64,000 bases of DNA from a candidate division WWE3 bacterium (GTDB lineage: Bacteria > Patescibacteriota > 4484-211 > GCA-002791395). The notes below the pieces were generated by a model. It was not told the origin of the DNA. It worked only from the letters and a program-made list of their open reading frames with translations, and ran no database searches. Within the stretch, counting starts at the first letter, position 1; the number at the start of each line of letters is the position of its first letter. The DNA lies in NCBI GenBank assembly GCA_013335095.1, contig JAAXWF010000001.1, positions 86,797 to 150,796 on the forward strand. The letters are read 5' to 3'. A program made the translations under genes and the position numbers. Below, piece after piece: positions 35,937 to 62,250 of the stretch.

Positions 35937-38252
35937 ATGTGGGATAATTTGGCTTCCGTTTTAGCTACATGTATGACCGATATAACAGCGAGTATTTACT
36001 ACCTACTGACAATAGAACTTTTGGGACTGATGGCTTGGCCATTTGCCCGTAGAATTTTAAAGGATCTTCCAGATCAGGGCTGGGCATTTGCCAAAATTTT
36101 AGGAATCCTCATGGTTTCGTGGTTAATGTGGTTACTCGCTTCACTCCATGTGCTAAGTTTTTCATACACAAATTTAGTTGTAGTAACACTGGCGGTTGCC
36201 CTCTTTTCTATATTCATAGGTAACACAAAAATAACATTTGGGGATGTACGAAAAGTATGGGCGTGGCTTCTAATCGAAGAAATTTTATTTATCACAATGT
36301 TTGGCCTATGGACATATGTGAGAGGATTTAGTCCAGCGATAAACGGCTTAGAAAAGTTCATGGATTATGGATTTATGGTTTCAGCGTATAGATCTGAATA
36401 CTTTCCACCGCTAGATCACTTTTTAGCCCGGGAGACAATAAATTATTACTACTTTGGTCATTATATTGCGGCGATGCTCTCAAAATTATCACGAGTACCA
36501 ACTGAGTTCGCCTACAACTTACAAATGTCTGCAATTATGGCATTAACGTTAATTCAGGCGTTTGCCCTGGCTGCGAGCCTATTCTGGTTCAATATGACCG
36601 ACGAGTTCAAACGAATCCCGTGGAGAAGTTGGTTCAGTGGAATCATAGCCGCAATCGCAGTCACCTTATTTGGAAACCTGCATGCAGCATTTTATCTTTA
36701 TCAGCAAGGTGAAAAATATTGGTATCCCGATGCTACCAGATTCATCGAATACACTATCCATGAATTTCCAATCTACAGTTTTATTGTTAATGATCTTCAC
36801 GGACATGTTAGTGATATCCCAACCGTTCTGCTCGTTTTAGCCTTACTTCTGGTCATGTTTCGCCATTTATTTGATTCTATTGCGGAACGACGAAAGAACA
36901 ACCAGGAAACTCTTCTACAGCTAATCACCATGAATATGCCAGTAGCTTTCATCACATTGGCTTGGCTAATTGGTACAACGTATACGACAAATGCTTGGGA
37001 CTTTGCCATATATCTTGTGGTATCGGGTTGCCTGATATGGGGATGGAGAGCGAGTGAACTTAAGCAACCTCAAAATTTATTCTCACGTCTGTTTCAGGTG
37101 GACGTTCTTATGAAGACTGCTATAAATTCAATCTTTTTGATGTCGTTCGCGATTCTCTTGTACTTACCTTTTTGGCGGCATTTAGTTCCGATTAGTCAAG
37201 GTATTGGAATTGTTCCACCAAATGGACGATCACCACTATGGCAACTTGGAATATTATGGGGAGTACATCTGCCTATCGTACTTATATTTTTATTATGGTT
37301 GTTTGAAATACGCCTTGAAAAAATAAAATTCACCGAAAAGATCGTTGCATTTTTTGCAAATATTCTCCAGGTAAAAATAACAATAGAAAAAGAGAAAACC
37401 ACGGAGCACATCCATACGACGAACCCACACCTCATAACGTTATTAGGTAAAGAACTGACATCTACCGATTTCATAATCTTAATTATGATCCTGGTAAGTC
37501 TGTTGTTAATTATTGCACCTGAATTTATTTTTATACGGGATATTTATCCACAGCATTACCGGGCCAATACAATGTTTAAGTTTTACTATCAGGCATGGAT
37601 AATGCTCGGGACGGTGTTTGGATTCGCAATAATTCGTTTATGGGCACATTTTAATAGGCATCCGAGCATTTATGGTTACTTGTTTAAATTACTGAGCCTT
37701 GTACTTATCTACTCAGCGTTAATGTATCCGTATAAAGCTATCAACCAAGGGTTCTCGCTCAAAACACCACGCTTATCAATAAACGGAATAACGTATTTAA
37801 CGATGAATCACTATGGCGATTCTCTAGCGATTAAATGGATTAATGAGCACATAAAAGGTCAACCGACTATGCTTGAGGGCGTTGGTGATAGCTATACAGA
37901 CTATGCCCGTATTGCATCTAACACTGGATTACCAACCGTAATGGGATGGCCGGTCCATGAATGGTTGTGGCGTGGAACATATGGTGAATCAATTGTTCCC
38001 AAAACTTATATAGAGAAAAAAACAGGTCAGGTAGACACGGTTGGTAATCGAGTAGATCAAGTAAAGCTAATCTATGAGGGCACAGACCTGAATGAAACAC
38101 GGCAATTACTCGGCAAATACGAAGTAAATTATGTATATGTTGGTGACTTGGAAAGGCAAAAATATCCATCAATGAATGAAAATAAATTCAGCGAAATGGG
38201 TTTACCGGTAGTATATGATAAAGAAAATGTTAAAATTTATTTAGTCCAATGA
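35937..38252 (+). CDS. large polytopic membrane protein (DUF2298 / YYY-type, GT-C-associated)
   Basis: 771 aa with about 15 TM helices and a large C-terminal extracytoplasmic domain. The family assignment is tentative. Confidence 0.45.
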   Translation: MWDNLASVLATCMTDITASIYYLLTIELLGLMAWPFARRILKDLPDQGWAFAKILGILMVSWLMWLLASLHVLSFSYTNLVVVTLAVALFSIFIGNTKITFGDVRKVWAWLLIEEILFITMFGLWTYVRGFSPAINGLEKFMDYGFMVSAYRSEYFPPLDHFLARETINYYYFGHYIAAMLSKLSRVPTEFAYNLQMSAIMALTLIQAFALAASLFWFNMTDEFKRIPWRSWFSGIIAAIAVTLFGNLHAAFYLYQQGEKYWYPDATRFIEYTIHEFPIYSFIVNDLHGHVSDIPTVLLVLALLLVMFRHLFDSIAERRKNNQETLLQLITMNMPVAFITLAWLIGTTYTTNAWDFAIYLVVSGCLIWGWRASELKQPQNLFSRLFQVDVLMKTAINSIFLMSFAILLYLPFWRHLVPISQGIGIVPPNGRSPLWQLGILWGVHLPIVLIFLLWLFEIRLEKIKFTEKIVAFFANILQVKITIEKEKTTEHIHTTNPHLITLLGKELTSTDFIILIMILVSLLLIIAPEFIFIRDIYPQHYRANTMFKFYYQAWIMLGTVFGFAIIRLWAHFNRHPSIYGYLFKLLSLVLIYSALMYPYKAINQGFSLKTPRLSINGITYLTMNHYGDSLAIKWINEHIKGQPTMLEGVGDSYTDYARIASNTGLPTVMGWPVHEWLWRGTYGESIVPKTYIEKKTGQVDTVGNRVDQVKLIYEGTDLNETRQLLGKYEVNYVYVGDLERQKYPSMNENKFSEMGLPVVYDKENVKIYLVQ

Positions 38253-38668
38253 GATTTCAATTTAATACCGCTCTTATTATCAGGTTTTTTACTATTTTAT
38301 CGGCCATTTCAATGATTATATCCCCAGTTGCGTCAGCCAATGCATTTGGCGTTGCGTGTCCAAAAGAATCTGAGGTTTATATTGCTCTATTTGATTCATG
38401 TTTAAGCTTTGGTCCAGCGATAAGCCTGACAATTAGTTGGTCGCTTGCTATTGGTACGGTACTCGCGTTAGCCAAGCTTGCCATTGGAGCAATTCAATTT
38501 TCATTCTCTACTGGGGAACCAGGTAAATTGGCAAATGCTCGAGCTACCTTAACCGATGCCTTCCTCGGCATCATTTTGATTGCATCAGCATGGATTATCT
38601 TTCGATTTATTTCCGGCTCACTTCCGGATCAATGGGATATTGATCTTCTCTTTTTCGATTTAAGTTAA
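38249..38668 (+). CDS. two-helix pilin-like protein (VirB2/TrbC-like domain), paralog 1
   Basis: A signal peptide, then hydrophobic helix 1, loop STGEPGKLANARATLTD, and helix 2 AFLGIILIASAWIIFRFISG. Its start overlaps the stop of the 771-aa gene. Confidence 0.5.
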   Translation: MRFQFNTALIIRFFTILSAISMIISPVASANAFGVACPKESEVYIALFDSCLSFGPAISLTISWSLAIGTVLALAKLAIGAIQFSFSTGEPGKLANARATLTDAFLGIILIASAWIIFRFISGSLPDQWDIDLLFFDLS

Positions 38669-38677
38669 TCGTTACCG

Positions 38678-39748
38678 ATGAAAAATATTAGTCATTTATT
38701 TATACCAGTTAAACATAACGATCATAGGCCGTACTTAACCCGCCATCCGGCATTAGCGCTATTTCTTCTTTTAATAATGACAGTTCAAACAACACTTAAT
38801 ATATTTACCTCAACAAGACCTCAGATCCTTGGATTTGCGACAAGTATCTATCAACAAGAGATCATCAGCTATACAAATCAGGAAAGAGAAAAAGATGGTT
38901 TGCCTGCATTAGTACATAACGCAAAGCTTGATGAAGCGGCAAAATTAAAAGCCCAAGATATGTTTGCCAAAAACTATTGGGCTCATGTTTCGCCAGATGG
39001 TATTGATCCGTGGCATTGGTTTGCCATGGTAAATTATGACTATACATCGGCTGGAGAGAATTTAGCCCAAGGTTTTGATACTTCGCGCGGAGTTATAAGT
39101 GGATGGATGGCTTCCCCATCACACCGAGAAAACATCTTATATAACAAATTTACTGAAATAGGAGTTGCGATCTTAAACGGCAATTTAGAAGGTGAAGATA
39201 CAACGTTGGTAGTTCAATTATTCGGAACCCCACCTGCTACAGCACCCGCCGTCGTCGCCCAAGCCCAACCGACAATAAAACCTACTGTAATAGCAACAAA
39301 AGCGCCTACACAAAAACCAGCTCCTACCGTTCAACTAATTCCGACAGATATCCCAGCATCCCCTACCGCAACGAGTACACCGTCCTCTCTGCAACAAGAG
39401 CTAGCAGTCCAGCCGACCAATTTACCGACACAAATAACTACAATAACAGACAACACACCAACCCCGAATCCAGAAGTCATAGTTGGCCCAAGTGGTGACT
39501 TCACGAATACTCCCCCCTCAAGACTGACAATGGTAATGGCGGCTGTAAGCGATTTACGAAACCTCAGTCCTGCCCGAATTTTTACCATAATAATGATTTC
39601 GTTTATTGTTATTCTTTTTCTGATAGATTCTATCGTGCTGTGGTACAAAAAAGTACACCGCCAAAATGCACACCGATTAATTTACGCCAGTATTCTGGTA
39701 ATCGCACTAATTAATATTATTTATTCGTCGGTTGGACTAGTATTGTAA
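38678..39748 (+). CDS. CAP (SCP/PR-1, YkwD-like) domain protein with Pro/Thr linker and C-terminal TM anchor
   Basis: EREKDGLPALVHNAKLDEAAKLKAQDMFAKNYWAHVSPDG...GENLAQGF...GWMASPSHRENIL matches the CAP domain. Confidence 0.75.
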   Translation: MKNISHLFIPVKHNDHRPYLTRHPALALFLLLIMTVQTTLNIFTSTRPQILGFATSIYQQEIISYTNQEREKDGLPALVHNAKLDEAAKLKAQDMFAKNYWAHVSPDGIDPWHWFAMVNYDYTSAGENLAQGFDTSRGVISGWMASPSHRENILYNKFTEIGVAILNGNLEGEDTTLVVQLFGTPPATAPAVVAQAQPTIKPTVIATKAPTQKPAPTVQLIPTDIPASPTATSTPSSLQQELAVQPTNLPTQITTITDNTPTPNPEVIVGPSGDFTNTPPSRLTMVMAAVSDLRNLSPARIFTIIMISFIVILFLIDSIVLWYKKVHRQNAHRLIYASILVIALINIIYSSVGLVL

Positions 39749-39749
39749 T

Positions 39750-40004
39750 ATGTATCATTTTATAAAACACCATATTTTTCAATACGCCATAATATTATTA
39801 TTATTCAGTGTCACTGTTACAAGTTTGTCGTCTAATATTGCTATTGGATATAAATTCCTGTTCTCTGGTATTGCGGTTGGAGTCTATTTCTTTTGGGCAA
39901 TATGGCATCACTGGGAGGATCATAAACTATCTTCAAAGACAATTCTAGAATATGCACTTTTGGTAACCCTCCTTCTTTGGCTGCTTTTGAATCTAGCAGT
40001 TTAA
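39750..40004 (+). CDS. small hypothetical membrane protein
   Basis: Two TM helices. Confidence 0.35.
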   Translation: MYHFIKHHIFQYAIILLLFSVTVTSLSSNIAIGYKFLFSGIAVGVYFFWAIWHHWEDHKLSSKTILEYALLVTLLLWLLLNLAV

Positions 40005-41212
40005 TCAACCGATAACGAAGATCTATCAAGATGTTCTAAATACTTACGTAATACAAACCCAGCCGCAAGTATGCTCATACCAAAGACAACCTGAAATAGT
40101 TGAGCAATTAACTTGTTATTTGAACCGATTCCAGTCTCTGGGAGCCGCTGAGCATCAGTACCTAATACAGCTGGCTTAATCAGGTTAGCGGGTGTTGAAA
40201 CAGCCGCTAGGACTTTTTCTGTCAATGTCTGTAGCGGTTGAATAATAGATTCTTGAAGTACTGTATTGTTATCACGTTCCTCAGATTCATTTTGCCGTCC
40301 TCCAATAGGTACCGAAGTTGGATAAACACTAATTCCAGGGTTTGGAGTAGGGCTTACAATGGCATTTGAGCTAACGTTATTTTCAACACGTGTCACCGCA
40401 GAGATCGAACCAGTTCTAATCATGCAACCCACATTATCGTTACAGTGATTATTTCCGGTATTTTGTATTTTATTAATCTGATTGGAAATTTCGATATTAT
40501 TAGTTTGATAAGCGGTTATAGAGCTCGACAGATTAACAAGAATGTTATTATTACTGCCATTCCCATTATTACTATTTGCCATATTCAATACTCCGTCTTC
40601 AAAACTTATAGGCAATGCCACATTTCTGCCCATATCATTGGTGACACTAACCTCATCGTAAATATTCCCTGTTGATATAACAACGTCACCTGAACTCCAC
40701 AAAGCACTATTATTACCCGTATTTGCATCGATATCCAGTGCATTACTTACAATTGAATTATTTGACTGCCCCCAATAGGGCTCGTTGTTAATATCGGCAC
40801 TAATAATATTTGTCGAAAAAGAACCATTATTGTCATTAGTAGAAGCAATATTACCTGCGTTATTATTTGTAACCTGGAGAGTATTAACATCACCCTCAGA
40901 ATTAACCAGAACAGAAGAATTAATATCTCCAGTTTCGAGTTTATTTTGACCATTATTATTTTGGATCACATTATCACCGGAGTTCAATAATTGATTGATA
41001 TCATTATTAATCGTCGTAGTATTTGATTGTAAAGCGCTCTGACTGCTTGTAATACTTACACTAGCACCATTAACACTATCAAGGCTATTAGAACTATTCG
41101 AGATAATTACGTTAGCATAAATAGGATTAACATATATAAGAGAAGATAAGGTCATACAGACCAACAGCTTCGGGGCAGTGACAGTCGTAGTAATCATTGA
41201 CCGACACTTCAT
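40001..41212 (-). CDS. N/S/T-rich secreted surface protein with LPxTG sortase sorting signal
   Basis: Signal peptide, low-complexity N/S/T-rich body with ANTGNN and NTGNNH repeats. The C-terminus is RLPETGIGS followed by a hydrophobic stretch and an RKYLEH tail. Confidence 0.7.
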   Translation of the reverse strand: MKCRSMITTTVTAPKLLVCMTLSSLIYVNPIYANVIISNSSNSLDSVNGASVSITSSQSALQSNTTTINNDINQLLNSGDNVIQNNNGQNKLETGDINSSVLVNSEGDVNTLQVTNNNAGNIASTNDNNGSFSTNIISADINNEPYWGQSNNSIVSNALDIDANTGNNSALWSSGDVVISTGNIYDEVSVTNDMGRNVALPISFEDGVLNMANSNNGNGSNNNILVNLSSSITAYQTNNIEISNQINKIQNTGNNHCNDNVGCMIRTGSISAVTRVENNVSSNAIVSPTPNPGISVYPTSVPIGGRQNESEERDNNTVLQESIIQPLQTLTEKVLAAVSTPANLIKPAVLGTDAQRLPETGIGSNNKLIAQLFQVVFGMSILAAGFVLRKYLEHLDRSSLSVD

Positions 41213-43512
41213 ATTGAGAGTAAAAACTTTTTTCGGATTACAAAGAATCCAGCAACCAATAAACTACTTATTAATATACCGACCTTCCACGGATTCAATT
41301 TTGGCCACTCAACTCGAGCACCCGCAACCTGAATATCAGAAGAACTATCATCTGTTGAAGAAGTCGCAGCGATCCGTTTAACTTTTAGTTTATCCGAAGT
41401 ATTACTGTTATCATTGTTAGAATCATTCTTAACAGACGCTCCTAATACAGATACTATAGACTTGCGAGAAGTGCCATTTATCGAGCTATTCTTACCCGTT
41501 GCATTTCGTTCAGGAGCCTTCACTGCATCATTATCTAGCACGGGGTGATTAGAAGAAGACTCAGTAGTACCAATTACTTCTAAAGCGATTGGCGTTGGGA
41601 AGGCTTGCACTTCTGAAGAAGAGTCCACAGCAACTTCGACAGAGACTTGCTGCTGATTTCCGATATTTTCATTGTTTGTATTGTTATCGTTATTCTCATG
41701 AGCGACTTCCTGCGCTTTATTAGTAAATTTACCCGTCCATTTCCCAAACAAATCATTGACTATGGTAAATACAACTCGTCCTCCTGCAAAATTGTTATTC
41801 AAAAAGTTCGTTATTGAGCTAACGATATTTACATCACCGGTGTTAATGCTTGTACTACCATCAAGATTATCCGCAATCTTGTTACCTCCAGTATTCGCAT
41901 TAATATTTATCGTATTATTAACGACAGCTTCATTAACTTGATTAATTGTGGTTGAATCTTCACGATTTACTACACCAGCATTCTCCGAATCTGTACCGTT
42001 ATTTGAATTATTAACATCAGATGAAATCTCGACAAGATCACCCGCACGATTTATATAATACGCTTTCAACTGTCCCCCTTGATTTAAGAATATTACATTC
42101 AAATCATCGCCAATAAAGTTTTGATTAGCAACAGTATTAACCTCGGCCGAAGTATTAACAGCTCCTGTTGTTATCGAATTTCCTTGCCCATCTCCATTAA
42201 TGTTATCTGATAATTTGTTTGACCCAGTGTTTGCGTCAATAACTAAAGTATTATTTATTGTGGCATTATTCTGTTGGTTGATTAATGTGTTTGATGAATC
42301 AGAGATTGTTCCATTATTAATTGAATTAGAGCCGTTACCTGAGTTATTAATTGCATAACTAGGATCAGCACTCTTTAATGGACTTTGATCAGGTAATACT
42401 ATATTGCCAGCAAAATCACCTAAAATATTTACGGTATTCACAACTAAGTCCGTGAGTGCAACAAAACTATTGTTGAGAAAATTAAATATATTCGCAACGA
42501 CGTTTGCATTACCAGTATTAATACTTGAATCACCAACGCTATCGGAAATCGTATTGGATCCTGTTTCTACGTCAATATTAATACTATTATCTACCTGTGA
42601 AAAATTATCAGTAGTAATAAATAAATTATTTCCACTTTGTATAATTCCAGAATTCACGCTGGATGATCCATTATTATCATTATTCACGCTTGCATCACCA
42701 TCACACGGGTTTATAGCGCTACAATTACTTGAGCCTGCGCTCAAAATAATATCTCCTGATTGATCGTCGGCTACATTAAACTCACTAGAAGAGATATCTG
42801 CACCCGTTAAATTAGTATTCGCAAAGTTGAAAATATTAACCGCACTTGTTACGTCTCCTGAATTAATAGTGCTACTACCACCTAGGTTATCGTGTATCTT
42901 ATTATCTCCAGTAACATAATCAACATTCACGCTGTTGTTAATATCTGTTTGATTCAATACATCGACAGTAGTGTCCGAAGCACCAGTTATGCTGCCGTTA
43001 TTCTCTGAACTCGCCTCATTTTGGATATTTGATACGCTAGTGTCTCCTCCATTTGAACCATCAAACAAACTCTGATTGTTATTCACATCATTATTGGTAT
43101 TAATAGATCCGTCAATAGAGCCGCTGTCGATTAAAGCGCTTCCTGAAAGATTATCATTATTATTCTGACCGCCATTAATTTGAGAATCGGGGTTATTCTG
43201 ACCACTATTTACAACTGTTGGAATTGGAGTCGGAGTTTTTGTTGGCTTTGGAGTCTTGGTTGGGATTGGTGTGTTAGAAATCTGGGTAACAGTAGGAACA
43301 CTTTGTGGCGTTGCCGTTGGTTGAATTGCTTGAGTCGGGGTTTGTGGAGGAGTCGGCATAGTCCAAACCGTAGTTGGCATAGCTGGTGGAGTAGGTATTG
43401 TTAAGGCTGGTGTTGGAGAAACATTAGTAACAGCGAAAGATAGTACTGGATTTACGATACTATATGCAATTTGTATTGTTATAAATGATTTTATTAATGT
43501 TTTGTTCATCAT
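41209..43512 (-). CDS. large N/T/S/G-rich secreted surface protein with Pro/Thr N-terminal linker and C-terminal TM anchor
   Basis: Signal peptide, PT-rich region, and repeated IDANTGSNKLSDN / INANTGGNKIADN motifs. ATGA overlaps the downstream gene. Confidence 0.6.
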   Translation of the reverse strand: MMNKTLIKSFITIQIAYSIVNPVLSFAVTNVSPTPALTIPTPPAMPTTVWTMPTPPQTPTQAIQPTATPQSVPTVTQISNTPIPTKTPKPTKTPTPIPTVVNSGQNNPDSQINGGQNNNDNLSGSALIDSGSIDGSINTNNDVNNNQSLFDGSNGGDTSVSNIQNEASSENNGSITGASDTTVDVLNQTDINNSVNVDYVTGDNKIHDNLGGSSTINSGDVTSAVNIFNFANTNLTGADISSSEFNVADDQSGDIILSAGSSNCSAINPCDGDASVNNDNNGSSSVNSGIIQSGNNLFITTDNFSQVDNSINIDVETGSNTISDSVGDSSINTGNANVVANIFNFLNNSFVALTDLVVNTVNILGDFAGNIVLPDQSPLKSADPSYAINNSGNGSNSINNGTISDSSNTLINQQNNATINNTLVIDANTGSNKLSDNINGDGQGNSITTGAVNTSAEVNTVANQNFIGDDLNVIFLNQGGQLKAYYINRAGDLVEISSDVNNSNNGTDSENAGVVNREDSTTINQVNEAVVNNTININANTGGNKIADNLDGSTSINTGDVNIVSSITNFLNNNFAGGRVVFTIVNDLFGKWTGKFTNKAQEVAHENNDNNTNNENIGNQQQVSVEVAVDSSSEVQAFPTPIALEVIGTTESSSNHPVLDNDAVKAPERNATGKNSSINGTSRKSIVSVLGASVKNDSNNDNSNTSDKLKVKRIAATSSTDDSSSDIQVAGARVEWPKLNPWKVGILISSLLVAGFFVIRKKFLLSI

Positions 43513-43593
43513 ATTTTTTCCTTCTACAAAAGGGTTTACCGCAGGAGAGAATAACTCCTCTCCTGACGGAAAACGCTCTTGCTTCTTTGCACA

Positions 43594-44799
43594 CTAACTG
43601 AGGAGATGCATTAGCATCATTAAAATGCTTGCACCATTCCAATCACCACTTAAATCATGAAGATCTGAGGTGGTGTCACCAATCACGTTTTGTCCTGCGG
43701 TATTATGTACCTCGACATCTGAATCTACGTCACCGGTATTCATATCATCTGAATTGTTATCAGAGATTTGATTATCTCCAGTGGCACCGTGTTGGTCTGC
43801 ATTATTATCGAAGGAGAGTTCATCATTGAACTGTTGGAACAGATCAGCAAAAGATAGTTCGAGACCAGCTTCGTTTTCTGTATCACGACCATTCTTTTCA
43901 TTAAGAACCTCAACATCGACATCACACATACAATCTCCTGCTGCAAGTACATTAGCACCAGCAGTATTGGCAATCTTGGCAGTCTGATCGACTGAGCCAG
44001 TTTCGGCAGCAGCTCCGCCTAGGTTATCCTTTGCGTCGTTGTCACCAGTGTTTGCATGTTGATCTAAATTGTTATCAACATCAACTTCATTTGATTGCAC
44101 CGCAACATTGGAGTGATTCACATTAGCGAAAACGCTATTTTCTGAATCTCGACCATTTGTTGAATTGGTTAAGGAGAATGAGCTAGATCCACCATTTCGT
44201 GAACCTAAGACAGCATGATTACCACCTGAGAGTGTTTCAACACTAGCATCTTGGTCAACATCTCCTGTTTGTACCGAGACTTCGGTATCAGAATTGTTGT
44301 CTTTCAAAGCATTATCGCCAGTATTAGCGTTTTGCTTAAGCTTGTTATTTACATCGACATTATTGGTTTGCATTAATGAAGATGCTTGTGTAGCGTTAAA
44401 TGCTGCAGTGTTTTCTGAATCTCGACCATTCTTTTCGTTAACGATCTCAACATCATAATCACAATCGCATTGTTGTAATTGCGCGACATTTTCACCAGCA
44501 TTGTTTACAACGCTTGCTTCCTGGTTTACATCACCAGTTTTAACATCGACACCTCCCAAATTGTCTTGTACTTTATTATCACCTGTATTAGCGTTTTGAT
44601 TGATATTGTTATCAATCTGAACATTATTAGTCTGATATACGCTAGATTCACGATTAATTTGAATCGTGCCTGAATTCTGGCTATCTCGACCGTTGGTGGA
44701 ATTCGTAATAGTATAAGTCGCAGCAAAAGCTGGTTGGGCCATTTGGAGCAGTAAAGCTCCGGTAGCTACTCCGGTTGCAATTTTTTGTGTTATTTTCAT
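43594..44799 (-). CDS. secreted repeat protein (four ~95-aa repeats with CDCD motifs)
   Basis: Signal peptide MKITQKIATGVATGALLLQMAQPAFA. The repeats contain NSTNGRDSQNS ... QNANTGDNKVQDN ... KTGDV ... CDCDYDVEIVNEKNGRDSEN. An AGGAGG RBS precedes the start. Confidence 0.6.
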   Translation of the reverse strand: MKITQKIATGVATGALLLQMAQPAFAATYTITNSTNGRDSQNSGTIQINRESSVYQTNNVQIDNNINQNANTGDNKVQDNLGGVDVKTGDVNQEASVVNNAGENVAQLQQCDCDYDVEIVNEKNGRDSENTAAFNATQASSLMQTNNVDVNNKLKQNANTGDNALKDNNSDTEVSVQTGDVDQDASVETLSGGNHAVLGSRNGGSSSFSLTNSTNGRDSENSVFANVNHSNVAVQSNEVDVDNNLDQHANTGDNDAKDNLGGAAAETGSVDQTAKIANTAGANVLAAGDCMCDVDVEVLNEKNGRDTENEAGLELSFADLFQQFNDELSFDNNADQHGATGDNQISDNNSDDMNTGDVDSDVEVHNTAGQNVIGDTTSDLHDLSGDWNGASILMMLMHLLS

Positions 44800-44861
44800 T
44801 CTATTCACCTCCTTTCGCAATTAGTCCCTTGTATAAGTGTTATCTTTATTTAACTAGGGCT

Positions 44862-49402: not shown

Positions 49403-50236
49403 TTAAAGTGATACCGCTTTAATTAATTCTCCGACAGCAATATAACGTTGATGATCAAATCCCGGTGGTATACAAGTCATAAGCGTTAACATTTTCTTAT
49501 TCGACGGTTGATTCGTAATAAATACATCCTTTGGAGTAACAACGCCAGTTTGGCTAATCTGATAAGTATACTCGGTTCCCATATAAATAACGCGTACGAC
49601 ATCGCCTGCCTTTATTTTTGGTAAATCAGTAAAAATAGATTCATAGTCATTTGATGCCAGTAGGGGTAACTTAGAGTGACCAAATAGGAATGAGTTCCCA
49701 TTTTGGCCCGGTAATGCAGATCCTTTTAGATGGGCGACGGCTCGAGTTAGTACCCGATCATAAATGTGTTCGTCTGTCCCATTCACATTCAGCTCAACTT
49801 TACGATTGTCGATTCCTAGCGCCGGGACAGATACGAAGACTTCACTATCAATCTTTTCTGAAAGTACGCTTCCAAGTGGTGATGAATCTTGCCGAAGAAT
49901 CGAAAGAGAGGAACCCGGGGTTGGTGAAGGTATCATTTTTGTCGGTGAAGGTGTTGATTTATTGGGGTTTAATAATAAATTTCCAAAGCCGGTACGAATA
50001 TCTATTGTTGTGCCATCCTCCGAATTCATCTGGACAGCAGAAATCACAGACGGAGTATCGACGGTAAATAACGCGGTGTTATCGAATTTCGGTAATGTAT
50101 TGCTCCATATGAAATAGATCCAACCCAAATATACTAATCCAACTCCCCCTACAGTTATCAGGGCAGCTCCTATCAAACGGGGAAAATGATATCTGTATTC
50201 AAGGACGATCGGTTCCATTCTGTTCGTCGTTTCCAC
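49403..50236 (-). CDS. sortase family transpeptidase
   Basis: N-terminal TM anchor. Catalytic His in FLFGHS. Cys in the TLxTC motif LTLMTCIPPG, followed by a conserved Arg. Confidence 0.8.
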   Translation of the reverse strand: METTNRMEPIVLEYRYHFPRLIGAALITVGGVGLVYLGWIYFIWSNTLPKFDNTALFTVDTPSVISAVQMNSEDGTTIDIRTGFGNLLLNPNKSTPSPTKMIPSPTPGSSLSILRQDSSPLGSVLSEKIDSEVFVSVPALGIDNRKVELNVNGTDEHIYDRVLTRAVAHLKGSALPGQNGNSFLFGHSKLPLLASNDYESIFTDLPKIKAGDVVRVIYMGTEYTYQISQTGVVTPKDVFITNQPSNKKMLTLMTCIPPGFDHQRYIAVGELIKAVSL

Positions 50237-51146
50237 GGATCTGTCGGCGAACTAAGCTCCGCATTTCTTGATGCTTACGCCATTGATTTATTTTCTGAAT
50301 TACTATGTATGCTAATGCACTAAAAAATGCTACGACACCGACAATCAACAAATAAATCCAAATAGTTGTAGCCTGTTTTAAATAGACATCAACAGCAACC
50401 GAGGCATTTTTTATTTCAACGACATCTGTAACCTGTTTATAATAACCAACTTTATTAATTTCAACATAATATTGACCCGCGGGTACAAAAAACTGATATT
50501 GGCCAAAGACATCTGAGGTGTATGGGTTTCTCTGGTTATCAAATGTTTGAGCCGGCCAGACCTCCCAACGGCCATTGTTTAGCCAATACAAGGTAACTTC
50601 AACCCCTGCTAATATAGTATGTTCACTTAACGTTCTAACTTTACCCGAAAGCTGAACTAATGAATTGGGATCAACAGTGGCTGTTGTAGCAACCGTTGGA
50701 GTCGGGACCTCTTGAGTGCTTTGTTCTTGGGCATATACGCTGGTGGGCTTAAAATACGAAAAGATATCAATATTAAACGGCTGGGTAAAGGTTCGAAGTA
50801 ATATATATGCGCTTCCTGCAAGAATTAAACCAAAAATACTATATGTGATAGTTGCCCGGGCTTGTTCTTGTTGCCGTGTATCATCCTGAGCGGTGACATA
50901 CAGATATCCAGCATAAATCATAAATGCCAACGATGCTATAACGGCTGTTATAACTGACATATTAAACATATAAATTGCTAAAACGGGTAGTTGGCGAACC
51001 GCACACGATGGAACTAAAAGAGGATTCGCTAGTGAATCACAGGGTATACGAGTTGGATACGGCGTGGTTGCATGAACATGAGCAGGTACGACCAAAAATA
51101 CGGCTAAAATAACAAAGATAAAAATAGAATGCTTAATAAATCTCAT
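50199..51146 (-). CDS. two-helix pilin-like domain (paralog 2) fused to a carboxypeptidase-regulatory-like beta-sandwich domain and C-terminal TM
   Basis: Signal peptide; hydrophobic helix 1 VITAVIASLAFMIYAGYLYV; loop TAQDDTRQQEQARATITYS; helix 2 IFGLILAGSAYILLRTF. Then VEVTLYW...FVPAGQYYVEINKVGYY. Its 3' end overlaps the sortase gene by 38 nt. Confidence 0.5.
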   Translation of the reverse strand: MRFIKHSIFIFVILAVFLVVPAHVHATTPYPTRIPCDSLANPLLVPSCAVRQLPVLAIYMFNMSVITAVIASLAFMIYAGYLYVTAQDDTRQQEQARATITYSIFGLILAGSAYILLRTFTQPFNIDIFSYFKPTSVYAQEQSTQEVPTPTVATTATVDPNSLVQLSGKVRTLSEHTILAGVEVTLYWLNNGRWEVWPAQTFDNQRNPYTSDVFGQYQFFVPAGQYYVEINKVGYYKQVTDVVEIKNASVAVDVYLKQATTIWIYLLIVGVVAFFSALAYIVIQKINQWRKHQEMRSLVRRQIRGNDEQNGTDRP

Positions 51147-55901: not shown

Positions 55902-58900
55902 TCAATCGTCATCAAGCGCCTTATACTTTCGAGCCTCACGTAATATACCTGCCCGTTGTTCAGGATCAAGAGTATCTAGTCGGCGCAGGAACTCTGGCAA
56001 GCTGACTTTCTTTCCGGATGTGTTATCAGTTATTAAGTCCTTCAATGTGGCATCTCCAGCTTGACCATCAAGATGCTCCAAACCTGTACGTTTCTGGCCT
56101 GTCCTCTTATCGATCGCCAAATCTTGCTTGGATATCTTCTGATTCTGCATGTCAAAGATAGGTAGTGTTTGTGGCATTTGATCATGTACTGTTTCTGCCT
56201 TAGGTAGGTCAGCAAAATTAACATTTTTAATCTCAGGATGTTTATTGAGCCAGAGTCGGAATCTCTCGGCTTGTGCTTTTCGACGACCAATAACTGTAGT
56301 CTTATCTTGTGCTTTACGCTGAAGCATGCGCATACCTTCCTTACTACCAGCCTTAGAACCTCTCTTACCCGCTTCAAGGGCTTTATCTCGTGCAGTTTTA
56401 GCATCCTCAGCGGCCATTTGGAACTGCTCTGTCATAGCACCACCAGCTCCAAGAGTCGCAACACTAAATGCACGGCTACCGAAGTTTGATACTCCACGGC
56501 GCATTTTCTCTAATCGAGATGGAGGTACTAATTTATCCTGAGCATCTTGTTCGGCAGATTTTCGTGTTCGATAAGCTAAGCTGGCATTACGACGAGCAGC
56601 GGTATCCTTACTAAACTTAGCTGCAGCATTTGCTAATCCGGCCGCAGATGTCGGAATTGCCAAACCATCAACGTTTATCATCTTTTGAGGTAATTTGACA
56701 CCAAACCAAAGTGTAATCATCGCAATCAATGACGAGCCAAATCCAGCAAACATTGATTTTTCGTCAGCACCAATAGTTAGAAGTAATATGCCGACACAAA
56801 GAACAGCAGCAACAGCAGTCTGAACAAATGTTATACCAACGATAGCACTAAACCATTTAGAACGGAGACCATCAAACCAGGGCATGACACTGAATGCAAA
56901 TATTGCAGGGGCAACAATTACTGCGAGCCAAATAATCGCATATCGGGCAAAGAATAGTAATAGTAATAACATAACCTGCATAAAGATGATTCCGATGAAT
57001 ATGACCGCGAACAAAATAATACCGATCAGAGCGCCACCACCAGTTGCTGCAACTAATGACATGAGGCCCATGACTGCGGTAACAGCCGCTGAGGCAAAAC
57101 TACCCATAACCGCAACACCAGCACCTACACCAGCTACGCCCACGACAGCCTTATTTCCTGCAGCAGTAAATGACTGCTGTAAAATTTCTTGAGTGAATTG
57201 GAATAGAGCCATTGAGAGGAAGTTGTTTATATCCAATAATGCTTGGACGATTATCAAGCTGAAGTTAGCCAATACAACACCCATCAATAACTGAGGTAAT
57301 ATTACCGAAATATGCCACTGTTCAGGTTGATATCGCAATATCGTCATTACTCCGATAACGACAAAGATTAGAACAAATAATACGTTTACTACATTTCTAA
57401 TGATGTCGTAGATACTGATAATTGCTTGATCTTGTGTTAAAGCTCGTGTCTGAAGACCGTACTTGAAGATAGCACTCATGACACCAGGAACATGCTTAGC
57501 AAACTGATCACCAACGGCACAAGCTGCACCAGCAGCAAGTCCATTAATTTGAGCACCTATATCTAAATTTAGATTGATATCATTAGAGCTACCACCACCA
57601 GGAACCGCAATCGTGACCATCTTACCACTCTGATCATTAGCAACTTTGCGAGCAAATGCTTCACAATTAAACTCAAGGTCAATGGTTACCTGAGGAGGAC
57701 TGACAGTACCAGACGAGTCAATTGAAATACGACGCGATTGATTAACAGGCTGCCCATCGATATCTCCCTCAACTACTATTTCATAAGTATTTGTAGCAAT
57801 ACCAATATCGGTTAATGCATCACAATATATCGGAGCACCCGAAGCATCTGTACAGATTTGGCCGACCTGTGAGCCATCAACAGGAGCAGGCAAAGATACG
57901 ATAAAACTTCCAGATGCAGGAACAACACCTAATTGCCCATCCACTGTAGGTTCATCTGACAATAGATCCGTTCCATTTGATTGGAATAATATGCAGTCGT
58001 TTACGATGTCACATTGTACGGCAACATCATTAGTGACCTGATAAACATTGACATTAACACGTCCATCCACTTGAGACTGACCTGGGATCTTAACGGTAAC
58101 GCCCACTGGTGAGCGTAATCCAGGAGTCGCCGCAAGTGCACTTTGGGGAGTTGCAGCGTCTTTAATCCAGTTCAATAGTGCAAGATTATATGTATCGGGC
58201 CCCTTAGATGCAGTTTGCAGACCGCCGACATTCACGCGATGGAAAGAACCTTGAGCGTAATCAACAGATTCTAAGCCGGCATATTGGTTATATCGAACAA
58301 GTACATTGAGCCCTAGGTTACCACTTGCAGCAGCAGGCGCTCCAGGTCTCGTAATAGGCCGCAAGTCAGCAGGAGGAATGTGGACTTGCCCAATACGGTT
58401 TGTATAGTAGAGATTATTTTCTGCAGGGACATCGATGCCCTCAGACCCAACTTCAGCAACTGTTACCCGAGCACCTGGTGCATATTGTGTACCACCAGGA
58501 CCAGGCACATTAATTAACAAACCCTCATCAAATCCTTCATTACCGGTTGCAGATTCATGCGCAACAACATCGATTCGACGAGGTCCATCAGTCGATCTAA
58601 ACAATCCAGTCCCTGACGCTGCCCGGTCAAATCGAGATAGATCAGCAACACTATTATCTAATATAACAGTAACATCATCACTACGAGCGACAGTACCACT
58701 ACCTGCAACCATATTTGAACCGAATTGATAAATACCCCGAACAGCAATACCTTGATTTCCTGTACCTGTTGAAGGTAAGTATACATATCTAACATTTTGA
58801 TCATCATTATTTGAACCTGAATAATCAATGCCCAGATCACTTTCAACTAATAACCGAGCATTAGGCATACGAACAAGACTTGGGCCAGAAACCGTCAATT

Positions 58901-60143
58901 GTCGCGAGCTTAATAAACTACCAAATTCATTTGTAATAGTACCCCATACAATTAAACGATTATCAGGATATATAATTTGATACGAAGTTACTGGTGGAAC
59001 ATCTATATTCAACATTCGACGCCAGTCCGACGATTGTTCAAATGACATATCGTTCTCAACAACCCATACCTGTCCGACTCCATGGCTATGCGAATTCAAT
59101 GCAGACTGTCCATCCCAGTCAGAATATGAAGGGCTACTACTTTCACGTCTCCACACAATTATTTCATAAAATCCTTCTGGAGCAAAAGCCTGAAAAGAAA
59201 ATGTACTAGTTGTACTGCCATTTGCCGGATCTACAGATTCAACATTCCGGATTGCTCGTCCTTTGATAATTGGAAAGTCTAATACCCCAGCTAATTGCCC
59301 CGAAGCCGGGCCTGTAGTTGCCAGAGTCCGAGTTACCCGTTGAGCCCAGATTTCGTACTGACTACCACTAGGTTCCTTAGCACTAATACTTATACGAAGC
59401 GTGTCGTTTGGAACGACAGGAAATGTGTTTATGTTATTACTAATATCAAGTTCATTACGTGTTGTAACAAAGGCATGACGGACTGCTATTTGTTCAAAAT
59501 TGCGGCTAGCTCCAGTAACTTCGACCTGAGAATCTACAACCTTTACTTGACTATCGGGCAAATAGTTTGCTTTATAGGAGAACACATCTAGAATTTTATC
59601 GTCGTTCTCAGGCATTCTAAATGACCAATCGCGTTGTATCCCGCTAGAAGTACGGCAAGGATTTGTGGGTGTATCGGTAGTATCGTTTGCAGCGGGCGCA
59701 AATGAAGCGCTGGTACATTCGACACGGCTGACAGTACCGCCATTTAAAATAAAGGGAAAGTAAACACCATAATATGAACCAGCTGGCAATCCCTGGACTT
59801 GGAAACTGCCGTCTGTTCTAATCTGAGTACGTACCGCTAAGTTTGAATTTATCCAAGATTCACTCGTAAATACACCTTGCTCGTTAAACCCAGCCCAAAA
59901 GTCAAAGGTGAAAACGTATACAGGAAGCCCAGCCAGCTCAGCAAACGCCTGAGTAGGATCGTACGCTTCGCCAATGAAGGCAGGGATTATTCTTCCAGTG
60001 AAGATATCCGCATTGGTTGGTCGGTTTACCGCCTCGGCTGCCGGGGCTTGACTAAGTAGTACACAGGCTACTAATGCAATAGTCAAGGACCCCCCGACAA
60101 ACCTTAGCATTTTTCGTATATTCATCTTTCTCAACTCGCTCAT
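55902..60143 (-). CDS. giant (1413 aa) surface protein: signal peptide, ~880-aa extracellular region, VirB6/TrbL-like polytopic domain, basic cytoplasmic tail
   Basis: Signal peptide ...ALVACVLLSQAPAAEA. A 6-8 TM bundle spans aa ~905-1155. A ~260-aa Lys/Arg-rich tail follows. This architecture is typical of VirB6-like proteins in monoderm type IV secretion systems. Confidence 0.5.
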   Translation of the reverse strand: MSELRKMNIRKMLRFVGGSLTIALVACVLLSQAPAAEAVNRPTNADIFTGRIIPAFIGEAYDPTQAFAELAGLPVYVFTFDFWAGFNEQGVFTSESWINSNLAVRTQIRTDGSFQVQGLPAGSYYGVYFPFILNGGTVSRVECTSASFAPAANDTTDTPTNPCRTSSGIQRDWSFRMPENDDKILDVFSYKANYLPDSQVKVVDSQVEVTGASRNFEQIAVRHAFVTTRNELDISNNINTFPVVPNDTLRISISAKEPSGSQYEIWAQRVTRTLATTGPASGQLAGVLDFPIIKGRAIRNVESVDPANGSTTSTFSFQAFAPEGFYEIIVWRRESSSPSYSDWDGQSALNSHSHGVGQVWVVENDMSFEQSSDWRRMLNIDVPPVTSYQIIYPDNRLIVWGTITNEFGSLLSSRQLTVSGPSLVRMPNARLLVESDLGIDYSGSNNDDQNVRYVYLPSTGTGNQGIAVRGIYQFGSNMVAGSGTVARSDDVTVILDNSVADLSRFDRAASGTGLFRSTDGPRRIDVVAHESATGNEGFDEGLLINVPGPGGTQYAPGARVTVAEVGSEGIDVPAENNLYYTNRIGQVHIPPADLRPITRPGAPAAASGNLGLNVLVRYNQYAGLESVDYAQGSFHRVNVGGLQTASKGPDTYNLALLNWIKDAATPQSALAATPGLRSPVGVTVKIPGQSQVDGRVNVNVYQVTNDVAVQCDIVNDCILFQSNGTDLLSDEPTVDGQLGVVPASGSFIVSLPAPVDGSQVGQICTDASGAPIYCDALTDIGIATNTYEIVVEGDIDGQPVNQSRRISIDSSGTVSPPQVTIDLEFNCEAFARKVANDQSGKMVTIAVPGGGSSNDINLNLDIGAQINGLAAGAACAVGDQFAKHVPGVMSAIFKYGLQTRALTQDQAIISIYDIIRNVVNVLFVLIFVVIGVMTILRYQPEQWHISVILPQLLMGVVLANFSLIIVQALLDINNFLSMALFQFTQEILQQSFTAAGNKAVVGVAGVGAGVAVMGSFASAAVTAVMGLMSLVAATGGGALIGIILFAVIFIGIIFMQVMLLLLLFFARYAIIWLAVIVAPAIFAFSVMPWFDGLRSKWFSAIVGITFVQTAVAAVLCVGILLLTIGADEKSMFAGFGSSLIAMITLWFGVKLPQKMINVDGLAIPTSAAGLANAAAKFSKDTAARRNASLAYRTRKSAEQDAQDKLVPPSRLEKMRRGVSNFGSRAFSVATLGAGGAMTEQFQMAAEDAKTARDKALEAGKRGSKAGSKEGMRMLQRKAQDKTTVIGRRKAQAERFRLWLNKHPEIKNVNFADLPKAETVHDQMPQTLPIFDMQNQKISKQDLAIDKRTGQKRTGLEHLDGQAGDATLKDLITDNTSGKKVSLPEFLRRLDTLDPEQRAGILREARKYKALDDD

Positions 60144-60170
60144 TCCAAACTAAATCAACTACCCGTTTAT

Positions 60171-60506
60171 TTAGAAGCCGAAAACGGCGCCCACATTTAA
60201 CAGGCCAGCTAATAATCGGAAGATAACGAATGCTGATGCGATAATAATCAACCCAATAACTGCGTTTGTAATAGTGCCACGAGCACCTTCAGCTTTACCG
60301 GAGTCATCACCAGCGGTAACGTAGTTAAAACCACCGATCAGAATAAAGATCAAACAAACTAATGCACCTAAAGCGATAGCCCAGTTAATTAACGTTGCGA
60401 CTAATTCTCCAAAATTACCAGTAAAACCTGCCGTTGGAGTTGGAACGACTAGACTAGAGGGCAAGGGTTGCTGTGCTTGAACTTTATTTACTAAAAAATT
60501 AAGCAT
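60171..60506 (-). CDS. two-helix pilin-like protein (VirB2/TrbC-like), paralog 3
   Basis: Signal sequence; helix 1 LINWAIALGALVCLIFILIGGFNYV; loop TAGDDSGKAEGARGTITN; helix 2 AVIGLIIIASAFVIFRLLAG. A strong AGGAGG RBS precedes it. It lies immediately upstream of the giant VirB6-like gene. Confidence 0.55.
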   Translation of the reverse strand: MLNFLVNKVQAQQPLPSSLVVPTPTAGFTGNFGELVATLINWAIALGALVCLIFILIGGFNYVTAGDDSGKAEGARGTITNAVIGLIIIASAFVIFRLLAGLLNVGAVFGF

Positions 60507-60693
60507 ACTATTTGCTCACCTCCTTAAAAAATAATGTAGATGTTGTTAAACTCATTTTAAATCAGTTTATCTTTCAATGATCACTGAAATACCGATATGT
60601 ATAAGTAAATCATACACGCATAATCAATGTCAAGAGTAGTCTGCGATCACTTTTTAACAGGACATTATATCAGACTTTAGTAACGATCCCACC

Positions 60694-62250
60694 CTACTTT
60701 AGTCTCCAAACACCATTCAACTTACTGATCTCTTCAGAGTCGTTTTCTTTTGACGAAAGAGATGTAACACGGATATAATTTGTTGATAGATATTCATTAA
60801 AAACAGTTAACTGCTGTTCGGGCAGTGGTTTATACGTAGGGGTGTAAAAGACTGTTTCAATAGAACGATCTTTTAACGTATTAATCAATTCGTTTTCGTA
60901 TTTCGGGTCAAGAAACTCTGGCCCCGTAGATATCATTTTTGTTGGATTTGATAAATCGAACCAAAAATATACTTCTCCAAGCCACGGACCAATATACAAG
61001 GATTGAACTAACAAAGGTTCTTCGTCTAATATGTTTTTAAGTTCGTTGATATTATTACCCCACTCCTTATCGACCCAGACTCCACCCCTTGGAGTAGTTA
61101 TTCTTATCGTATCTATAAAATAGTAATACTTAATCTTGCTTAATAAACAAATGAATAACAATAAACCGCAAAAGATCAACACCATCGATAGAAATAAATT
61201 GCTGCTTAGGTTTTTAAAAGAGCTCCAATCAAATCGGCCCTTTTTAATAACACTATCCTTAATGGTATTGAGCCAATCGACTCTACGTATCACAGAATAG
61301 AATACATTTGAGTTAAAGGCAAAAGTAAGTCCTACGTGACCTAATGTTGGTGACATCAAGGTAAACAGCAAAAATACCGTACCGAAAATTGATACAACAA
61401 ACAAATCATCTTGCTTGCGGCCTTCATGCCACCATTGCTTCCAAAATACGATTAAGACTATAAAGGTGGCTACCCACAAAGGGCTTAAAAGCTGTAATCC
61501 GTTTCCCGGTAAATAATGGTAAAAGGGGAAAAGGATCGTAGACGATAAAAAATCAAAGAGCCGGCCATTAAAAAGAAAAAAAGCGACCCAAGCCAATGGG
61601 ACAAGGATAGACCCAACGGTTAGTATGAACGATAGATATAGTGATCTTCGGCTAAATCTGTAATTTGTCCAAATTAATATTATTAATGATACAAAGACGG
61701 CCGCCCCCTGCCATAAAATAATACTGGCAACGATTCCGGTTAATGTCCCAATAATGAGCCAACCCAATTCGGTGTTAGTAAACCTTTTATAATAAAGAAT
61801 TACCCATACAACAATTACCGATGCCAGTATTCCGGTCCAATTATGGTTATACATAGACGTAATACTGACACAATTATAAATGAGTAAAGAGATAGATGCA
61901 GAAAAGACTGATTTAAGACATTTGTACGATATTAAGAATACGAGAACTCCAGACAACAGGGTGATAATTGTGACGAGCGTAGCAAACGCAGTTGTTGTCA
62001 CGCCCCAAATACTAAACCAAACTAACAATAAATAATAATTTACTGGCATCCAGAATTGATAAAAATCTACATATAACTTGCCTCCTTTTAACATTTGCTG
62101 TACAGCTCCAATCGCCACGTCACCATCTCCATGCCAATCGACTTTAATACCTAATAGAAGAGTTAACCAAAGCACGAATAATAGGACTGCGATAGAAAAT
62201 AAGGTTCGTATGAATATAGCGGTAGAAAAAAAAGATCGCATAAAATACAA
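60694..62250 (-). CDS. hypothetical polytopic membrane protein
   Basis: About 10 TM helices and a soluble C-terminal domain. Confidence 0.45.
   Translation of the reverse strand: MYFMRSFFSTAIFIRTLFSIAVLLFVLWLTLLLGIKVDWHGDGDVAIGAVQQMLKGGKLYVDFYQFWMPVNYYLLLVWFSIWGVTTTAFATLVTIITLLSGVLVFLISYKCLKSVFSASISLLIYNCVSITSMYNHNWTGILASVIVVWVILYYKRFTNTELGWLIIGTLTGIVASIILWQGAAVFVSLIILIWTNYRFSRRSLYLSFILTVGSILVPLAWVAFFLFNGRLFDFLSSTILFPFYHYLPGNGLQLLSPLWVATFIVLIVFWKQWWHEGRKQDDLFVVSIFGTVFLLFTLMSPTLGHVGLTFAFNSNVFYSVIRRVDWLNTIKDSVIKKGRFDWSSFKNLSSNLFLSMVLIFCGLLLFICLLSKIKYYYFIDTIRITTPRGGVWVDKEWGNNINELKNILDEEPLLVQSLYIGPWLGEVYFWFDLSNPTKMISTGPEFLDPKYENELINTLKDRSIETVFYTPTYKPLPEQQLTVFNEYLSTNYIRVTSLSSKENDSEEISKLNGVWRLK

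Follow-up and report, generated by a model that had tools for sequence, protein, structure and literature searches.

A pilin gene and a gene for an extended VirB6-like protein form a conserved pair, probably part of a type IV secretion system, in a candidate division WWE3 bacterium

In a survey of 3,035 Patescibacteria genomes, VirB4 was found in 2,417 genomes from 18 of 20 classes, and PF18895 pilins and VirB6 homologues were recognized as parts of the Patescibacteria type IV secretion system (T4SS) (PMC12102498). The closest described locus is that of Southlakia epibionticum ML1, in which SEML1_0013, a protein of 1088 amino acids (aa) with a structural match to TrbL/VirB6, is encoded next to an array of pilin genes (SEML1_0014-0019); in a transposon sequencing (Tn-seq) experiment, SEML1_0013 and the array genes scored as essential at the time points taken during outgrowth (PMC10633639 supplements). 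Here we describe a related pair of genes in a candidate division WWE3 bacterium (Patescibacteria, or candidate phyla radiation [CPR]), found in a 64-kb stretch of its DNA that we call the window. The pair encodes a VirB2-like pilin and a 1413-aa protein with a VirB6-like membrane core, and we consider it probable that the two are the pilin and VirB6-like platform unit of a Patescibacteria T4SS and act with an ATPase module encoded elsewhere. That Patescibacteria have a T4SS with PF18895 pilins and VirB6 homologues is already known (PMC10633639; PMC12102498; PMC12857230), and the find is largely expected. The modest new points are the split arrangement in a WWE3 clade, the N-terminal beta-sandwich ectodomain, the failure of standard domain models to detect the family, and pilins without a signal peptide. 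The pair is laid out as follows.

60519-60524, minus strand: AGGAGG ribosome-binding site (RBS) of the pilin gene, read from the sequence, 12 nucleotides (nt) upstream of the ATG
60171-60506, minus strand: gene for a VirB2-like T4SS pilin, 111 aa (Pfam PF18895; alignment with 12 neighbouring pilins)
60144-60170, minus strand: spacer of 27 nt from the pilin stop to the start of the VirB6-like gene (sequence reading)
55902-60143, minus strand: gene for the extended VirB6/TrbL-like protein, 1413 aa, HGA91_00775 (open reading frame [ORF], translation, database match)
60030-60143, minus strand: signal peptide or N-terminal anchor, aa 1-38 (hydropathy scan, sequence reading)
57489-60029, minus strand: predicted ectodomain, aa 39-885, ~7-8 beta-sandwich modules (AlphaFold2 [AF2], Foldseek, conservation profile)
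56673-57428, minus strand: TrbL/VirB6-like polytopic core, aa 906-1157, ~7 predicted spans (core alignment A1, Pfam on family members, AF2, Foldseek)
55905-56672, minus strand: basic C-terminal tail, aa 1158-1413, presumed cytoplasmic (charge count, low conservation)

Like the Southlakia T4SS, the window has a giant polytopic TrbL/VirB6-like protein encoded beside PF18895 pilin gene(s), and both systems are chromosomal, belong to Patescibacteria and come without a relaxase. The two differ in that the window has one adjacent pilin gene in the same orientation as the large gene, whereas Southlakia has six in divergent orientation, and in that the genes for PrgI, the TrsD-like protein and VirB4 are not adjacent to the pair in the window. 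The ectodomain of the window protein is also specific to a WWE3/CPR3 subfamily (43 of its 163 closest relatives).

More distant systems share individual parts of this layout. TrwI/VirB6 and TrwL/VirB2 of R388 (PDB 7o3v, 8rt9, 8rtd) have in common with the pair a polytopic helical core and a two-helix hairpin pilin, but TrwI is a 342-aa protein without a large ectodomain or long tail, and the diderm MPF_T system of R388 includes VirB5 and VirB7-10, of which the window shows none. TcpH of pCW3 (832 aa) and PrgH of pCF10 (266 aa) belong to monoderm systems of the MPF_FATA type, the class from which the Patescibacteria T4SS derives (PMC12102498). TcpH resembles the window protein in having a polytopic domain with a long C-terminal extension; unlike the window protein, TcpH and PrgH lack a large N-terminal ectodomain, and their systems lack VirB2-like pilins. 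The extended VirB6 proteins of Rickettsiales likewise have a core of at least five helices fused to very large hydrophilic domains, and their T4SS genes are dispersed (PMC12857230, PMC7648143), but the extra domains are central or C-proximal (PMC12857230), whereas in the window protein they are N-terminal, extracytoplasmic and of beta-sandwich type (aa 39-885), with a tail of just ~255 aa.

The first-pass annotation, made from the sequence alone, had described a pilin-like gene with a strong AGGAGG RBS at 60171-60506, lying 27 nt upstream of the large gene. The ORF, our reading of the sequence and a PF18895 match above threshold confirm this description, with the pilin stop codon at 60171-60173 and the ATG of the large gene at 60143. 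The NCBI entry for the large protein (P0001 in our numbering), from a WWE3 bacterium and encoded on a 536-kb contig, starts at Met7 and so has 1407 aa. No terminator-like site was found in the 27-nt spacer, and the two genes are therefore likely, on the evidence of their sequence, to form an operon. Promoter and terminator scans returned nothing above chance, and an extended −10-like element, TGATATAAT, at ~60667-60675 on the minus strand was spotted by eye only. Directly upstream of the pilin gene lies a gene for a 518-aa polytopic membrane protein (60694-62250, minus strand) without a Pfam or NCBIfam match, which may be a GT-C-type glycosyltransferase like the products of nearby PMT_2 and DUF2298 genes; in loci L018 and L020, tblastn finds ORFs with weak similarity to it (E 2e-8 to 3e-11) at a distance of ~7-8 kb on the upstream side of the VirB6-like gene.

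Its Pfam family, its hairpin architecture and structure-based annotations published for members of the family (PMC10633639 supplement) identify the 111-aa protein as a VirB2-like pilin. It matches PF18895 (T4SS_pilin) at 45.3 bits, against a gathering threshold of 26.6 bits, with an E value of 9.4e-12 over profile positions 2-71 of 71; its match to the NCBIfam Mbov_0395 pilin-like conjugal transfer family, at 30 bits, is under the cut-off of 40. Two hydrophobic helices (~aa 35-63 and ~82-103) are linked via the loop TAGDDSGKAEGARGTITN. When the protein was aligned with 12 pilins encoded next to homologues of the large gene, a GF..FG..L motif, helix 1, a Y.TAGDD...AR..ITN loop and helix 2 were all found to be conserved. 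The pilins of the clade in which the pair stands isolated (window, L002, L009, L010, L011) have an AQ-like site preceded by ~10-12 non-hydrophobic residues, whereas the pilins of more distant relatives, in which the pair is embedded in a cluster, have a normal signal peptide.

For the large protein, the first-pass annotation had proposed a signal peptide, a huge extracellular N-terminal domain, a helix bundle and a basic tail, and the hydropathy scan and AF2 models agree with it, giving an ectodomain of ~850 aa and seven spans. The scan places a hydrophobic segment at aa 11-36, followed by an AEA/V site, and finds the next one only at aa 907, where a series of hydrophobic segments begins that extends to aa 1149. 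The AF2 model of this region has helices at aa 906-936, 945-994, 1008-1034, 1037-1084, 1093-1125 and 1131-1157. Reading the long helix at 1037-1084 as two spans gives a predicted total of seven, consistent with an N-out/C-in topology, which the basic tail also fits (48 Lys and Arg versus 33 Asp and Glu at aa 1160-1413).

We accept that the core belongs to the TrbL/VirB6 superfamily on the basis of transitive profile evidence and genomic context. The core (aa 880-1175) was cut from 24 family members and aligned (alignment A1), in which R916, N920, N960, S962, Q967, D971, R1067, P1079, P1088 and A1112 are invariant. Searched against a 5.8-billion-sequence database (E values are database-wide), the A1 profile matched the ordinary-sized proteins P0030-32 (342-358 aa) at E values of 1e-20 to 3e-16, and the alignment spans both halves of the core, the N-terminal half with almost no compositional bias. 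P0032 scores above the Pfam thresholds for TrbL and TrbL_4 and P0031 above that for TrbL_4; P0030 stays below both thresholds with the Pfam copy used and has a precomputed TrbL_3 match only. The family itself also touches TrbL: the homologue P0011 exceeds the Pfam TrbL threshold (26.9 versus 25.9 bits), TrbL is matched by 6 of the 24 A1 cores at E up to 1 (best 8e-7) and by 4 of 43 sampled proteins of the wider family at E up to 1e-3, and precomputed TrbL_3 or TrbL matches exist on P0007, P0011, P0028 and P0052. The AF2 model of the core is an all-helical bundle (predicted local distance difference test [pLDDT] score 74), and the top three Foldseek matches among 350,542 PDB chains are, at weak similarity, TrwI/VirB6 of R388 (probability 0.85). 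Both the path through A1 to proteins that pass the TrbL threshold and the TrbL match of P0011 thus support the earlier suggestion of a VirB6-like polytopic core.

The genomic context of relatives ties the pair to a T4SS. In L003 and L005, two PF18895 pilin genes are followed by the VirB6-like gene and then by genes for p750, p338, a wall hydrolase (M23 in L005), the VirB3-like PrgI, p429 (a CarboxypepD_reg protein of ~420 aa), a TraC-like protein of the TrsD type and VirB4; the large proteins of these loci share the N-terminal domain and core with the window protein at 32-34% identity. L027, which has the same layout as the Southlakia T4SS, consists of a six-pilin array, Hsp20, a VirB6-like gene (1034 aa; core profile E 2e-32), PrgI, a TraC-like gene and VirB4. 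These three loci, in which the pair sits within a PrgI/TraC-like/VirB4 cluster, sustain the original idea that the pair is part of a T4SS-like module. A scan of species-representative genomes yielded 16 further loci, from genomes named WWE3, CPR3 or generically, and wherever a related locus extends upstream of the large gene, that gene is immediately preceded by one to four pilin genes in the same orientation. By gene order and protein similarity, the comparison shows the pair to be conserved across WWE3 and CPR3, contiguous with the VirB4, PrgI and TraC-like genes in L003, L005 and L027 and separated from them in the clade of the window.

The related loci follow two arrangements. In type A, DUF2298 is followed by the pilins, the VirB6-like gene, p750 and p338, onward to VirB4. 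In type B, the pilin and VirB6-like genes stand alone; next come a GT4 gene in convergent orientation, a gene for a solute-binding protein and, in relatives, GroES/EL, with RecJ and SecDF on the opposite side. The window belongs to type B, together with L002, L006-L011 and the contig of P0002, at 32-39% protein identity. A remnant of the type A order is found elsewhere in the window.

38249-38668, plus strand: second PF18895 pilin-like gene, 139 aa (Pfam, 27.2 versus 26.6 bits; ORF coordinates; synteny with L003 and L012-L015)

Its start is overlapped by 4 nt by the stop of a DUF2298 gene (35937-38252), and relatives have DUF2298 immediately before the pilin/VirB6-like/VirB4 cluster. Judged by this synteny, the DUF2298 gene and 38249-38668 look like the left edge of an ancestral T4SS cluster. 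Because the window retains this type A left edge, we infer from gene order that the cluster was split in the WWE3 clade of the window. Nine nucleotides after the 139-aa pilin-like gene begins a gene (38678-39748) whose secreted product combines a CAP domain, a Pro/Thr-rich linker and a C-terminal membrane span.

The large protein belongs to a sizeable family. The 1413-aa ORF has 29 database homologues at an E value of 1e-48 or better (978-1671 aa), labelled WWE3 or CPR3 where named, except for one labelled Cloacimonetes; these homologues and the recurring order of pilin and then large gene show that the ORF is not due to chance. In an exhaustive search, the A1 profile matched 25,416 cluster representatives when the E-value limit was 1e-3, of which 15,555 remained at a limit of 1e-10; a look-up of the clusters gave no names for this wider family. 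Among the 150 best of the 25,416, most are 700-1700 aa long with the core in the middle of the protein, so that, as far as sequence lengths and core positions tell, a large N-terminal extension is the rule in the core family. The extracellular domain had been called unusually large, a view that these lengths and the 1088 aa of SEML1_0013 contradict. The 3,035-genome survey counted just 480 VirB6 homologues, with few or none in Microgenomatia and Gracilibacteria (PMC12102498), and failure of standard TrbL/VirB6/PrgH models to detect most of the core family may explain this number. We would go one step further only tentatively, as a possibility we think less likely than otherwise: that the giant VirB6-like proteins are the "missing" VirB6 of much of Patescibacteria, with a wall-spanning stalk or contact function fused N-terminally, and that in WWE3 the envelope module has been uncoupled from the ATPase module. 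A tblastn search of the core against 72,556 plasmids gave no match, and a recent origin from a plasmid or integrative and conjugative element is therefore unsupported; the chromosomal synteny points the same way. The VirB6-like gene has a GC content of 0.43-0.44, versus 0.38-0.39 in its flanks (window 56001-60000); recent transfer of the gene is unlikely because chromosomal synteny is conserved in relatives.

The AF2 model of the ectodomain (aa 37-885, made with the family alignment) has a pLDDT of 79.7 and a predicted TM-score (pTM) of 0.76 and consists almost entirely of beta strands, in ~7-8 sandwich modules. Foldseek matched it in the PDB to the Bacillus anthracis TIE adhesin (6fwv, E 5e-8) and to the pilins Spy0128, BcpA and PitA (probability 0.92-1.0, and 0.84 for one BcpA chain); the immunoglobulin (Ig)-like domains of PrgB matched at E 7e-6 with a probability of just 0.16, and models of viral proteins, a "cell wall surface anchor" and fibre proteins, matched as well. 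Because global TM-scores are low (0.06-0.26), what the model establishes is the fold class alone, namely tandem Ig-like/CnaB-type beta-sandwiches. Gram-positive TIE and sortase-pilin adhesins are of this class as well, but these are separate, LPXTG-anchored polypeptides, whereas the array in the window is fused to a T4SS membrane subunit. Such adhesins are reported to assist conjugation in monoderms (PMC8092201). A thioester domain of the TIE type was considered and is unsupported, the region being nearly all beta strand and its conserved cysteines looking like a disulphide pair, with no thioester or isopeptide motif tested or established in the ectodomain. pCW3, a conjugative plasmid from clostridia, has a region upstream of its tcp transfer genes (L025, 16290-22661) that encodes a protein with a CAP domain, a SpaA-type pilin-related protein and a class D sortase; this set is similar to genes scattered near the T4SS genes of the window, which may be coincidence.

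Conservation is uneven along the protein. Its most conserved stretch is aa 51-150, where family members are 49-56% identical to the query, compared with 29-42% for the membrane core and 9-27% for the poorly conserved aa 350-900 and tail (9-14% for the tail itself); core and N-terminal domain together have at least 40 invariant positions. By BLASTP, the N-terminal domain is common to just 43 of the 163 closest core relatives and the tail to three of them. The distal N-terminal domain being the most conserved part, its partner is more likely to be something conserved, for example the pilin, than a host receptor.

From these observations we propose how the pair may work. A VirB4 module encoded elsewhere in the genome would power the system. 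In the R388 structures, a TrwI pentamer reportedly serves as the platform for pilin polymerization. The VirB6-like core may oligomerize in the membrane in the same way and would then be the site at which pilin is taken up from the membrane and polymerized into a fibre. To judge from its fold class and topology, the fused ectodomain of ~850 aa would cross the wall and replace the stalk or contact role played by VirB5 in diderms and by separate adhesins in monoderms. Its conserved N-terminal domain would bind a conserved partner (the pilin, the wall or another T4SS part) and not a variable host receptor, as the conservation profile suggests, and the basic C-terminal tail may contact the cytoplasmic ATPase. 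By analogy with Southlakia genetics, the machine would serve host interaction and not conjugation or ComEC-dependent DNA uptake.

Several results weigh against the assignment of the pair to a working T4SS. One group concerns the missing partners. The first-pass annotation had reported no VirB4 or VirD4 ATPase within 10 kb, and the absence now extends over the whole window and 10 kb beyond its 3′ end (L001, the locus that covers these 10 kb, was used in the ATPase searches). No VirB4/VirD4-type ATPase is present among the window ORFs of at least 450 aa, all of which are otherwise accounted for, and tblastn with a CPR VirB4, proteins of this kind being 60-75% identical across CPR, found nothing in the window or the 10 kb past its 3′ end. 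PrgI, TraC-like, p750 and p338 homologues were likewise not found in the window or the 10 kb beyond by phmmer and tblastn, the window ORFs scanned include no type IV coupling protein (T4CP) or relaxase (the lack of a T4CP being the one that tells against the assignment), and none of the best 120 of more than 8000 VirB4 matches, obtained with a relative's VirB4 as the query, could be placed on the contig of the window. A second group concerns the proteins themselves. The 1413-aa protein has no Pfam or NCBIfam match, and neither the whole protein nor aa 845-1213 matches TrbL even at E up to 10. A comparison of the core structure with VirB6, TrbL and TcpH had been proposed as a check: TrwI/VirB6 does rank first, but the fold similarity is weak (E 0.2, TM 0.32-0.42), and direct hhalign comparisons with TrwI (E 0.039), TcpH (E 0.014) and PrgH (E 0.16) are not significant. 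The hhalign alignments nonetheless pair equivalent R..AP..P..W regions of the cores, the stretch shared with TcpH and PrgH being the "R..APl..lP..W" part at non-significant scores. A search with the core profile among PDB sequences returned nothing meaningful. The pilin has no significant match to TrwL of R388 (hhalign E 0.09 over 13 columns), and its profile finds no match among PDB sequences, solved pilins included. In the alignment of related loci, no hydrophobic signal-peptide core was found in the 111-aa pilin or the other pilins of its clade, whereas experimentally characterized VirB2/TrbC pilins have a cleavable N-terminal leader or signal peptide.

A further pilin-domain gene and a sortase gene lie near the pair.

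50199-51146, minus strand: third pilin-domain gene, 315 aa, with a PF18895-like hairpin, a CarboxypepD_reg beta-sandwich and a C-terminal span (Pfam)
49403-50236, minus strand: sortase gene overlapping the end of the 315-aa pilin-domain gene (adjacency)

The T4SS_pilin-like hairpin of the 315-aa protein scores 26.5 bits, slightly under the 26.6-bit cut-off. The gene and the sortase gene are kept together in L002, L006, L010 and the P0002 contig, and L011 ends after the pilin-domain gene. It is unusual for a VirB2-type hairpin to be part of a possible sortase substrate.

These two genes bear on the idea that the pair is an autonomous surface module, working without a VirB4-type ATPase, for example as a membrane-anchored adhesin or fibre assembled via Sec/YidC and possibly the nearby sortase. 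A pilin-domain protein and adjacent sortase are conserved ~4-8 kb away, the ectodomain resembles sortase pilins and adhesins, the pair is kept alone and far from any ATPase in at least eight loci of the clade, and L026, another giant member of the family, also lacks VirB4 within 10 kb. We nevertheless regard such a module as quite unlikely, since the nearest relatives hold the pair within a full VirB4 cluster and the invariant core residues of those cluster-embedded relatives are retained. We know of no VirB2 or VirB6 homologue that acts without VirB4, which also counts against it. So do the standing of VirB4 as the hallmark of all T4SSs and the dispersed T4SS genes known elsewhere, for example in Rickettsia (PMC12102498). 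The same separation could instead mark an evolutionary relic, in which the ancestral T4SS cluster broke up and the pair is a leftover no longer involved in secretion: the DUF2298-pilin edge and the pair are now ~17 kb apart on opposite strands, and homologues of p750, p338, PrgI and TraC-like proteins are not found in the window. This we think very unlikely. Neither ORF is disrupted, and one occupies 4.2 kb of a genome that, to judge from the 536-kb contig, may be just ~0.5 Mb; the pilin gene has a strong RBS, core and N-terminal domain keep their invariant positions (at least 40), and the arrangement persists among relatives at just 32-39% identity, which implies long-term purifying selection.

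The last alternative accepts a working machine and gives it another purpose, namely DNA uptake (ComB/Ced-like) or conjugative DNA transfer, rather than host interaction or the conduction of proteins or metabolites. The earlier reading of the sequence had raised a DNA-uptake apparatus as a possibility, RecJ lies ~7.5 kb from the pair in the window and in relatives, T4SS loci of the class ABY1 are often beside comF, recG and radA, and Patescibacteria VirB4 nests in the conjugative MPF_FATA class (PMC12102498). However, just 103 of the 3,035 genomes were found to have a relaxase and a coupling protein is seldom linked to virB4 (PMC12102498), the window ORFs scanned include neither, and S. epibionticum, which requires comEC for competence, can do without that gene but not without its T4SS (PMC12857230; PMC10633639). 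This last result in particular disfavours DNA uptake (PMC12857230), and we consider a DNA-transfer machine unlikely. A pilin and VirB6-like platform unit served by a distant ATPase module thus remains the reading that we hold to be probable.

Other genes in the window touch on envelope functions. At 40001-44820 (minus strand), three successive genes encode proteins of 403, 767 and 408 aa with Asn/Asp/Ser/Thr-rich repeats and motifs like N.NTGDN...DN.GG..TGDV; all three have signal peptides, those of 403 and 767 aa also have C-terminal membrane anchors, and Pfam has no significant match for any of them. Their probable role is that of surface-layer or coat proteins. The 767-aa ORF (41209-43512) was considered as a VirB4 or p750 homologue and rejected, as it is such a repeat protein and has no similarity to genes of L003 or L005. 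Type IV pilus parts, a system separate from the T4SS pilins, are encoded at 13765-14427 (PilO-like) and 14424-15026 (PilN-like), both on the minus strand, and at 498-1223 (plus strand; a protein with an N-terminal methylation motif slightly under the Pfam cut-off). An 840-aa protein with a Peptidase_M23 domain and three Big_7 Ig-like domains is encoded at 10036-12558 (plus strand), 43 kb from the pair; M23 hydrolases take the place of VirB1 in related T4SS clusters (L005), as the literature also describes. A 586-aa protein with DUF2326 and a weak AAA_23 match (6716-8476, plus strand) is possibly a defence-type ATPase unrelated to the T4SS. KsgA (RrnaAD; 28029-28847, minus strand) and YidC (29849-30580, plus strand) are encoded in the window, and virB4 is not; in Patescibacteria, ksgA is among the genes typically near virB4 and the replication origin (PMC12102498). 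The cumulative GC skew drops steadily over the window, without a switch.

To our knowledge, the Patescibacteria T4SS is the only T4SS essential for the growth of its owner. The locus described here adds an example from WWE3 without changing the current picture. The VirB6-like subunit has a confidently modelled beta-sandwich ectodomain whose distal domain is under the strongest constraint, and its escape from standard domain models means that surveys based on such models would undercount VirB6. The pilin and VirB6-like genes are conserved as a unit of two even where the ATPase genes no longer lie alongside, and these points offer structural biologists concrete ways to ask how a pilus could be built by a monoderm T4SS.

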